Source: a virus
Taxonomy: Duplodnaviria; Heunggongvirae; Uroviricota; Caudoviricetes
IMG/VR virus record: IMGVR_UViG_2541047807_000011
Length of the DNA: 34,131 nucleotides
Reading direction: 5' to 3' (one strand)
How positions within the stretch are numbered: the stretch's first letter is position 1; each line of letters starts with the position of its first letter. Of this stretch, positions 15,001 through 18,000 are shown piece by piece. Position numbers: made by a program.

Positions 15001-18000
15001 CCATTTACTTATCTCCTGCGTAACGGGCGACATCCTCTGGATCAACGCCCATCATTGAACAAATGGCGATATCGACATCAACGTCATCGCCGGTTTTAAT
15101 CTGCGCCGGAGCCGGTGACGGCGTTTTGGGTGGTTTGCCGCCGGTCTGGGTGCTGCTGAGTGCGGCAAGCGGGGTGGTTTTATCCAGCCAGGTTTTAAAA
15201 CCGTTGATATCGCGACGAGCGTAATCTTTCGCCCAGTCTTCCAGCGTCGGAAGCAGTCGCCCGTCAGACAGCGCCGCCTGAATCAGTGCCCCGGCTTCGG
15301 CCTCACCGGACTGTTGCGCCAGTGCGGCATAACGCCCCTGAAGTTCTTCATATGCCGTCAGAGGAATATGCTTCGTCGGGTCATAGGCATTTGCTGACAG
15401 GCTGGCGATTTGCTCGTCTTTCTGATTCAGCAGGGTCAGCAGACCAACAGAAGCCGCTGCCGTTCCTTTGCCACCAGAGACAGCATCAATAATTTTTTGC
15501 AGCTCTGCGCAGACTTCCTCTTCGGTTGAGGTTTCCGGCAGCGTCAGCAGCCAGCGTAACTGCGCGAGTAAATTTGCTAATTGTTCCGGGTTCACGGTTT
15601 TGGTCTCCGTTTCAGTTGACAGACTCGCCAGACGGCTGGCCGCAGCCAGCATGACCGCGTCCATACCGTCCAGCGCAGGGGTATTGGTCAGCGCAGCATG
15701 TAACAGCTCCAGCACTTCGCCGCGCTTGTTGTAGGCAAAAACAGGGGAAATAAACTTGTACTCACCGGCGGCAATCATGGCCGCCGCGTTCTCCGTCCAC
15801 TCCACACCGGTGGCATACAGGCCCGCACCTTCTCGCCATTCCACCTGGCTGAACCAGCCCGCCGCCGGGGCGGGCTTGCCGTTGTTTACGGCGCGCAGCG
15901 TCTGATGTTCGTAATCAATGACAAAAGGCGTGGCGCGGGCGGCCACCTGTGCGACAAGCTGCGCGGCCAGTCCGGCAGTCAGCACCCATTTACCGCTTTC
16001 GACTTCATCGGTATGTGGGCGACCATCCACCGCGCTGAACTCGCCCGCCGGAAACAGCTGGATTTCGCTGTGGGTTGCTTTAGTAATTTCGAGGCTTAAC
16101 GCCGCAATGTTCATCTTCATACGCGGCATGATGACGGAAGGGGAACACGGGGTACTGTGGAGGGTGTTCAGCACCCTGCCATAACGGGAAAGGATAAAAG
16201 GGGAAATAAAACCGTTTTTAAAACCCTTTTAAAAACGATTCTGACAGCATTTACGGGGTGCAGTGCTTAATGCCTCATCCGTGAGGCGTTTATGTTGTCA
16301 CATGCGATTACAGCGCGTTTGTCGCCATTCAGTCAATCACACGCGCAAAATAGCGGTTTGCGGTGTTCTCCAGCTCGTCGATGTCGTCCTGCACAAGCTG
16401 AAGGAAGGGGCGCGCGGGCATGTTGACCGTATATGCCCCGACTGTTGCGCTCTGCACAAAATTACTGTTGCGCTTTTTCACAAAGCGGGTGCTGACGCTG
16501 CCGTTTTTGTACTGTTTAAAATACAGGTTCTGCGTCCGTGCCTGATGGCGGATTTCGCCGCCTTCGTTGTGGATACGGGCATAACGGACATTTGTCCCGA
16601 CCGTGGCCTCGTTATTGTTAACCGCAGAGCGGATACTGGCAGCCAGTCGCCCGGACTTCTGAAGGATTTGCCCGGGGCCGCGTCGCTTCGCATAAGCCGG
16701 ACTCCAGCCCATCCATTTCGGGCGACCCTGTTGTTCCAGGTTAGTCTCAACCGCATCCTGCATGGAGCCAGCAAGCGCCGTCATCAGGTCGCGCCGGTCC
16801 TTCACGGAACGAATCAGTTTCCCCAGCGTGGTGTTATACGCGCTTAAATCAATCTTAATATCCAGTTTACCGGTGCTCATGATGCCTCCGGGGTGTCCTG
16901 CATAACCCAGTCTGTCAGCACGTCATCCTCAACCGTCGCCACTGACCAGCGGTCGCCCGACTGTAACGCATACCGCCACGCGTTGCCGTCCTGCGTGACA
17001 TGCTCCGCCCGTTCGATGGTCTGCTGCATCAGCACATAGTCGGCGGCGGTCGGGGGCGTGTCTGCTGCACTGAGGCGCTTCATAACGTCAGCCGTAAGGT
17101 TTACCGTCTGCCGTGCAGCGCCCGTGGCGGCGACCTGTTCCGGTGAACGGATGGCCAGCGGATATCGCTGGCGCGCATCCAGTTCGCTGACGTTTGCCAG
17201 TCCCCGGGCAAAATCCGGCCCGGTCAGGGTGCCGGTGACATACTGGCGGGCGCTGCGGTAATCGTATTTTTCCAGTTCCGGCTGCCATGCCACCCGACCG
17301 GGATTAAATCCGAAGCCCGGGTCGGCGGTATACACGGAACCGTCCGGCATCTTCAGCCCCATTGTTCTGATGGTCTGGCCCGGCTGGCCATATTCCTGTT
17401 CAACCTCAACCAGTCGCCCCTCGCTGCTCTGCACCGTCAGGCCATATTTCTCCACATCAGACGCCGAACGCGCCCGGATACGGCAGCGGCATCCGTACCC
17501 GTCAGGCGCGTAGAAATACTCCCAGACCGGGTCATCCGCCCGGGCGGTAAAGCCGTTCAGGGCGGCGTGTTTCGGGCGGGTGTGAAGGTCCATCACCGCC
17601 ACGCGCTCAAAATAAGGCCGGTCGGCCACGTTCGCCATCTGCTGCTGATAACGTCCGGCGTTGTAGGACGACTGAATGTTGGTATCAAATATCGTGCGCA
17701 ACCGGCGTGGCGTCAGCTGTCTGCCGTGCAGTTCGCCGGTGTCCTCGTCCACAATCAGTTTTTTACCCAGCCAGCCTTTTGATTCCAGCAGTGGTTCCAG
17801 TTGTGCAGCAAACTCCCGGAACGTCCCGCCGTCAGCCAGTGCCGCCGTCAGGCCATCACGGATATCCTTCAGCACATCCAGTTTCAGCACACCCGCCACC
17901 GTGAACGCCCGGGCGTTGGCGATGTCCTTCACATCGTGCCAGCGGAAGCCGATAACGTACCCCTTGCTTTCGAAATACTTGATCGCTTCTTCCGGTTTCA

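Follow-up and report, generated by a model that had tools for sequence, protein, structure and literature searches.

The subject of this report is a late promoter, and the gene that it heads, in a Mu-like prophage of Escherichia coli. The prophage was analyzed as one 34,131-nucleotide stretch of DNA (IMG/VR record IMGVR_UViG_2541047807_000011; the window), in which every gene is on the minus strand. A 26-bp block at 16150-16175 (−), lying between the homologs of Mu genes G and I, proved to be one of three copies of a late-promoter element, and sequence comparisons place the start of the downstream gene, which encodes the head maturation protease and scaffold, at ATG 16120 and not at GTG 16174, which opens the longest open reading frame (ORF). 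The finding holds and is for the most part ordinary, consisting of a Mu-type late promoter together with a longest-ORF artifact that had already been resolved by RefSeq. Added here are the exact start codon, the correct symmetry element of the block and a conserved arrangement, unlike that of Mu, in which the promoter lies next to the ATG. As a joint statement, it is highly probable that the block serves as the upstream activator site in a promoter of the type of Mu P_I (the late promoter upstream of gene I), with translation starting at ATG 16120 of an mRNA that would have no leader or a leader of at most 2 nucleotides (nt).

The repeated block and its promoter geometry

The block (coding strand, GGTGCTGAACACCCTCCACAGTACCC; plus strand of 16150-16175, GGGTACTGTGGAGGGTGTTCAGCACC) differs at 3 of 26 positions from a segment at 24303-24328 (−) upstream of the lysis operon, a similarity for which 0 matches were expected on the basis of 100 dinucleotide-preserving shuffles. 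An earlier note on this DNA had reported the repeat with 22 of 26 identities; the repeat was recovered, with the count corrected to 23 of 26 by eye in the register of 16151-16176 against 24304-24329. A 13-mer core, GGTGCTGAACACC, has exactly two exact minus-strand occurrences in the window, and a further copy on that strand, with a single mismatch (4238-4250), is situated directly before the gp46 gene. The C of CTGAA falls at 24324, 16171 and 4246, and all three copies are on the coding strand, directly upstream of genes. On that strand the box reads gggtgCTGAACACCCCCAGCagtaccc at the lysis copy, gggtgCTGAACACCCTCCACagtaccc at the protease (I) copy and aagtgCTGAACACCCTCACCtgattc at the gp46 copy. 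A fourth box-like match at 22696 (CTGAACGCATCACC followed by CATGAT) lacked the C-run and was treated as chance; its conservation across relatives is most likely due to coding sequence.

At each of the three copies, the C of CTGAA is located exactly 38 bp before a hexamer of the form nAnnnT: CATCAT (16133-16128, −; A2 and T6) at the I copy, TACCCT (24286-24281) at the lysis copy, where the dyad GCTGAACACCCCCAGC occupies 24325-24310, and CAGACT (4208-4203) at the gp46 copy. The last of these promoters (4192-4250, −) consists of the box AGTGCTGAACACCCTCACC (4250-4232), the −10 hexamer, GGCGGC and ATG 4196, the same ATG that RefSeq gives as the start of gp46. No −35 hexamer was present at any of the three copies, and the box fills the −35 region at the I copy. 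A consensus scan of 15900-16500 detected no canonical two-hexamer sigma-70 promoter. An Rfam scan of the same interval returned only sub-threshold chance matches, indicating that the block region is not a known RNA family. The promoter lies between the G homolog (PF05069), which ends at 16329, and the protease gene (PF10123), which starts at 16120; if A16120 is taken as +1, the block spans −55 to −30. The shared box, the constant 38-bp spacing to a −10-like hexamer and the missing −35 element bear out the proposal of the earlier note that the block is a second copy of a late-promoter element.

A single gene for a transcription activator of the Mor/C family was detected among the ORFs of the window that were scanned. 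This gene (24670-25137, −; 155 amino acids [aa]; PF08765 Mor, E 1.6e−6, above the curated cut-off) is located upstream of the lysis copy of the block, and its product, which has the FLGG..FYIP strand common to Mu C, is presumed to be the protein that binds the boxes. In the relatives, the activators share a helix of the form LCP.YG.SDR..W or variants of it, and the type of box is conserved along with the activator.

The protease start codon and the promoter beside it

The protease/scaffold gene, a homolog of Mu gene I (15005-16120, −; 371 aa; PF10123 Mu-like_Pro, E 1e−99), was extended in the ORF listing to GTG 16174 (15005-16174, −), which adds an N-terminal segment beginning with MLNTLHSTPCSPSVI (residues 1 to 15). 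This GTG falls within the 26-bp block, as the earlier note had pointed out in arguing that the start was mis-set and that one of the in-frame ATGs at 16129, 16120 or 16114 should be used instead. All three ATGs are present. The RefSeq annotation (Prokaryotic Genome Annotation Pipeline) of two genomes gives a protease of 371 aa which begins at the equivalent of ATG 16120 (16118-16120, −) with MKMNIAAL. Database homologs have lengths of 366 to 374 aa, and alignment of 42 of them, the check that had been suggested for locating the conserved N-terminus, produced a common MK(T/M)xIAAL with nothing conserved upstream. In the DNA of relatives, the third positions of codons 4 to 8 vary while I-A-A-L is kept, indicating that these codons are translated. 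A start at the position of ATG 16120 is kept in about 70 lineages when, as was done here, starts in relatives are anchored at the in-frame ATG nearest to the aligned N-terminus and only ATG is searched for; the codon at 16114, which is Met in the window, is Thr, Leu or Lys in other lineages. Judged by the RefSeq start, the conserved N-terminus and the unconserved upstream extension, ATG 16120 is the true start of the protease and GTG 16174 is a mechanical longest-ORF artifact. The suspicion of a mis-set start was, therefore, justified, and among the three candidate ATGs only 16120 survives, neither 16129 nor 16114 being conserved. An in-frame GTG at codon 176 of the gene (15593-15595, −), with GGAG 9 nt upstream, is likely to be the internal start of the scaffold protein, by analogy with Mu Z.

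The 7 nt between the CATCAT hexamer and ATG 16120 form a G+C-rich discriminator, GCCGCGT (16121-16127, −), and no Shine-Dalgarno (SD)-like word was detected 4 to 11 nt upstream of the ATG; the GGCGGC/GCCGCGT element abuts the ATG and is too close to act as an SD sequence. This arrangement was examined in 68 non-redundant protease upstream regions from relatives spanning Escherichia to Neisseria, Burkholderia and Pseudomonas DMS3. An nAnnnT hexamer ended 6 nt (n = 32) or 7 nt (n = 26) before the ATG in 58 of the 68 regions, as compared to 0 to 5 such hexamers at each of the other offsets inside 30 nt. The gp46 promoter is of like build (CAGACT-GGCGGC-ATG). Of about 50 distinct sequences from IMG/VR that lie upstream of gp46, most keep this design, which Klebsiella phage ST405-OXA48phi1.1 and Pseudomonas phage DMS3 also have. 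RNA polymerase starts transcription 6 to 8 nt after the −10 hexamer, and the protease and gp46 mRNAs should, therefore, begin at the AUG or within 2 nt of it. The position of the −10 hexamer, the lack of an SD sequence and the similarity of 58 of the 68 relatives make a leaderless mRNA the likely output of the protease promoter.

The protease gene of DMS3 (L172; NC_008717) has, within 330-400, a TTGAACCCCTTCAT box followed by ACCATT, GGCGGC and an ATG at about 396. RefSeq starts this gene at 512, which is 116 nt downstream of the box-linked ATG and probably too far downstream, as in tblastn the window protease is matched from 401 onward. Apart from fixing the protease start at ATG 16120, the comparisons thus suggest that some reference records, such as that of the DMS3 protease, may carry starts that are placed too far downstream.

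A mechanism can be proposed in which the Mor/C-family activator would bind the dyad at 16172-16157 and its flanks, with a center at about −44 relative to the transcription start site (TSS). As there is no −35 hexamer, sigma-70 polymerase would need the activator, and the host enzyme would use the weak CATCAT (16133-16128) only in its presence. Transcription would start 7 to 8 nt past the −10 hexamer, at the A of ATG 16120 or at most 2 nt from it, generating an mRNA with a leader that is absent or no longer than 2 nt and has no SD sequence. Leaderless initiation would yield the full-length protease, and the internal SD-led GTG 15595 would probably be the start for the scaffold portion. The same design would operate at gp46 (ATG 4196), and the lysis copy would give an mRNA with an ordinary leader. 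It may be conjectured that the pairing of a weak leaderless protease start with an SD-led scaffold start sets the ratio of protease to scaffold. If so, the leaderless mRNA would be a testable reason for the production of little protease relative to scaffold from one gene. A leaderless mRNA here would also make the prophage a naturally occurring example, in E. coli, of a leaderless system that is switched by an activator.

A G+C-rich palindrome surrounds the −10 hexamer in many relatives, with the hexamer in its loop and the ATG within, or at the end of, its 3′ arm; CCATGCCCCGCA-caa-TGCGGGGCATGG is an example. The gp46 promoter of the window has such a palindrome (TCCATGCTGCCA-gac-TGGCGGCATGGA; 4218-4192), with 12-bp arms centered on the −10 hexamer and containing the ATG, which as RNA has a predicted energy of −24.9 kcal/mol (z −5.8). 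The hairpin at the I promoter of the window was not significant (z −0.9). When 66 promoters were placed in one register, 61.6% of cells paired, against 30 to 44% with the partner slid, and the observed covariation score was reached by 0 of 500 shuffles. Among 22 good stems, the non-Watson-Crick positions were G:T in 23 cases and A:C in 5, counts that are not independent, the sequences being related. This excess of G:T hints at a hairpin formed by sense-strand RNA, i.e., in read-through transcripts. There is a tentative suggestion that in a large clade of Mu-like elements comprising the Escherichia, Klebsiella, Yersinia, Neisseria, Burkholderia, Nitrosomonas and Pseudomonas DMS3-type transposable phages, the protease and gp46 would be expressed from activator-dependent leaderless mRNAs, with the hairpin, in many members, burying the AUG in read-through RNA such that only promoter-proximal, leaderless transcripts are translated. 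No description of such a transcription-coupled translation gate on late structural genes was found for Mu or its relatives.

The palindromes are also compatible with a different view of the transcript, according to which the promoter is of the P_I type but the TSS lies further upstream or another −10 is used, the mRNA has a leader and the hexamer is kept for another role, for example, as the loop of a regulatory hairpin. The leader of about 25 nt at Mu P_I, the presence of the ATG in the 3′ arm of the palindrome in many relatives and the predominance of G:T over A:C in the good stems, as expected for a sense-strand RNA hairpin, would all fit a leadered mRNA. Against this, A2 and T6 of the hexamer are invariant in the aligned set and the hexamer keeps the 38-bp distance to the dyad that is seen in the mapped Mu promoters. 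The I copy of the window has no other nAnnnT hexamer at a workable distance, retains its hexamer despite lacking a significant hairpin and has no SD sequence to serve a leadered mRNA. A leadered transcript from this promoter is, consequently, regarded as unlikely.

Several observations nevertheless count against the preferred reading of a P_I-type promoter producing a leaderless mRNA from ATG 16120. CATCAT is a weak −10 hexamer, with 3 of 6 matches to TATAAT, and the dyad in the window is imperfect, its right half being TCCAC and not TCAGC. Anchoring of starts at the nearest ATG means that the all-ATG outcome in the relatives is partly a product of the procedure. Leaderless mRNAs are generally poorly translated in E. 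coli, which is awkward for a structural late gene. No literature was found on leaderless or mapped late transcripts in Mu-like phages, and the differential RNA sequencing table of Burkholderia cenocepacia J2315, in which the BcepMu prophage is silent, contains no sense-strand late-gene start. Finally, Mu, the only member with mapped late promoters, is leadered, so that leaderless output is not among the traits of the family as defined by experiment.

Symmetry of the box and the reading frame through it

The predicted activator site is a 16-bp imperfect dyad, GCTGA-ACACCC-TCCAC (GCTGAACACCCTCCAC; 16172-16157, −), the center of which is at −44.5 if the TSS is A16120. The I site of a close relative in Citrobacter (L086) has a perfect GCTGA-N6-TCAGC, and the sequence kept in close relatives is (G)CTGAAC-N5-[TC]CA[GA]C, with changes in the flanks. 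Over about 70 non-redundant lineages (Enterobacterales, Neisseriales, Burkholderiales, Nitrosomonadales and others), the box takes the form CTGAA-N4-TTCAG, TGAC-N4-GTCA or GGAA-N4-TTCC. In 42 of 71 lineages CTGA begins between −50 and −52, and the centers of the dyads cluster from −43.5 to −45.5, counted from the ATG. According to a preprint (bioRxiv 10.1101/2025.05.02.651988), bound Mor and C are tetramers with contacts to two adjacent major grooves, which could explain conservation beyond the 16-bp core.

A different symmetry, GGGTG-CTGAA-CACCC, forms a 13-bp palindrome which is perfect at the I and lysis copies and which had been taken as the functional dyad in the earlier note. At the lysis copy (24300-24340, −) the palindrome reaches perfect 12-bp arms (CTGCTGGGGGTG-ctgaa-CACCCCCAGCAG). 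Enteropathogenic E. coli (EPEC) E2348/69 lacks the left arm past GGGGTG, indicating that this extension is strain specific. Were this the element through which the block acts, it could be a hairpin or terminator for the G transcript or a site for another dimeric protein centered at about −49. The arms are, however, not conserved. At the lysis copy, CTCC replaces CACC in E2348/69 and tactg replaces gggtg in L086; gggtg is replaced by accg at both copies in L087 and by gactg at the I copy in the Yersinia relative L089, while the downstream ...CA[GA]C is kept. The family-wide axis lies 4.5 bp further downstream, and the symmetry axis proposed earlier was rejected on these grounds. The terminator version was likewise rejected, as no T-run follows the block and a terminator scan found no match there on either strand. 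Action of the block through the GGGTG symmetry in any of these forms is, thus, very improbable.

Least plausible of all, to the point of being nearly negligible, is the view that the block is merely coding sequence, with the protease starting at GTG 16174 or ATG 16129 and an incidental similarity to the lysis site: although the frame is open from 16174 and some gene callers chose the equivalent of ATG 16129, giving products of 374 to 376 aa (P0001, P0003 and P0007), these N-terminal extensions are ruled out by the relatives, since L089 has CTG in place of the GTG and ATA in place of ATG 16129, L087 has an in-frame TGA in the extension and L031 has the equivalent of ATG 16129 out of frame, and, furthermore, the protein alignment has no conservation upstream of MK..IAAL and copies of the block also stand in non-coding DNA, ahead of the holin genes and of gp46.

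Setting in the prophage and comparison with known systems

A search of INPHARED detected no near-identical deposited phage genome, and complete E. coli genomes were, therefore, used for comparison. The 1-kb stretch around the block was present at 95.7 to 99.2% identity in 55 of 5,426 such genomes, including EPEC E2348/69. The promoter stretch itself (16112-16180) had at least 96.9% identity among the matches listed, which came from all 55 prophage-bearing genomes. Upstream of the promoter are the gene for the virion morphogenesis protein of the Mu G type (16329-16880, −; PF05069) and the Mu F homolog (16877-18043, −), and a holin gene was identified at 23774-24226 (−), all by Pfam.

Several further features of the window were noted. 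Between G and the late promoter there is a perfect AT-rich inverted repeat, CGTTTTTAAAA-GGG-TTTTAAAAACG (16213-16237, −), which is kept, with variation, in nearly all relatives and which occupies the position of the strong gyrase site of Mu (cut site annotated between G and I in NC_000929); by analogy, this repeat is probably the gyrase-site equivalent. A hairpin, GCCTCA-cgga-TGAGGC (16272-16287; 16269-16290 on the plus strand), is located about 40 nt past the G stop codon. Because its T-rich tail is confined to the plus (non-coding) strand, it is scored as a terminator of transcription running the other way; a more distinct terminator follows G in several relatives. The C terminus of the activator (...PTQVGLFD) contains QVGLF, which resembles a beta-clamp-binding motif, and such a motif has been reported in Mu C and other members of the Mor/C family (PMC12867686, PNAS 2026). 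A gene for an N6/N4 DNA methyltransferase (21267-22007, −) is present between the DUF1804 and large terminase genes, a label taken only from the syntenic gene as called in relatives. Neither a mom gene nor a mom-type promoter copy was found in the window; non-specific adenine methyltransferases are reported to be carried by Mu-like prophages without mom (PMC3299994).

Mu C activates late promoters from a 16-bp imperfect dyad centered at −43.5, with a footprint of about −30 to −55, and these promoters have a −10 hexamer but no −35 hexamer (PMC2582627). The span of the 26-bp block, −55 to −30, is that of the Mu C DNase I footprint, and in Mu Pmom TAAGAT lies, by our own count, 38 bp past the first base of TTAT-N6-ATAA, the same spacing as in the window copies. 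Like Mu P_I, the promoter of the window is situated between G and I and downstream of a gyrase site, the strong one in Mu and a strong-gyrase-site-like element in the window, in agreement with the parallel to P_I that had been drawn in the earlier note. The common −10, the absence of a −35, the dyad geometry and the position between G and I support assignment of the promoter to the P_I type. In Mu, as in the window, late operons are headed by several promoter copies (P_I, Plys, PP and Pmom in Mu; three copies in the window), and a Mor/C-family gene is found just upstream of the lysis operon in both.

The two systems differ in the box, which is of the CTGAAC...TCAG type in the window and TTAT-N6-ATAA or ccATAAcCCC in Mu, and the activator of the window is only distantly related to Mu C, with a single 21-residue match of 62% identity. 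The third promoter is located before gp46 in the window and before gene P in Mu. The geometry of Mu C/Mor late promoters is extended to the CTGAAC...TCAG box of many prophages, and box and geometry combined offer a simple way of finding late promoters in Mu-like elements. At the Mu middle promoter Pm, the dyad bound by Mor has its center at −43.5 and overlaps with the −35 region (PMC2582627; bioRxiv 10.1101/2025.05.02.651988). Mor belongs to the same protein family as the window activator; Pm drives the middle operon, including C, whereas the boxes of the window head late genes. The internal start is also shared, with Mu Z beginning inside I at codon 179 according to the annotation and GTG 15595 being codon 176 of the window gene.

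The largest difference concerns the 5′ end of the message. Mu P_I has a leader of about 25 nt, as judged from a promoter oligonucleotide designed around the S1-mapped start, and AGGA before the ATG, whereas in the window 7 nt separate the −10 hexamer from the ATG and no SD sequence is present. Mu and the Haemophilus FluMu group are exceptions that have a leader and an AGGA-type SD sequence. The mRNAs of lambda cI transcribed from PRM and of Tn1721 tetR are leaderless, with the AUG at the 5′ end and no SD sequence. These two cases resemble the design in the window, with a −10 hexamer 6 to 7 nt from the ATG. The cI and tetR genes encode regulators that are made in low amounts, whereas the window genes are late structural or morphogenetic genes, encoding a head protease and a baseplate protein (gp46). 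The leaderless design of the window further differs from that of cI and tetR in being, as predicted here, activator dependent and in being conserved across many bacterial orders.

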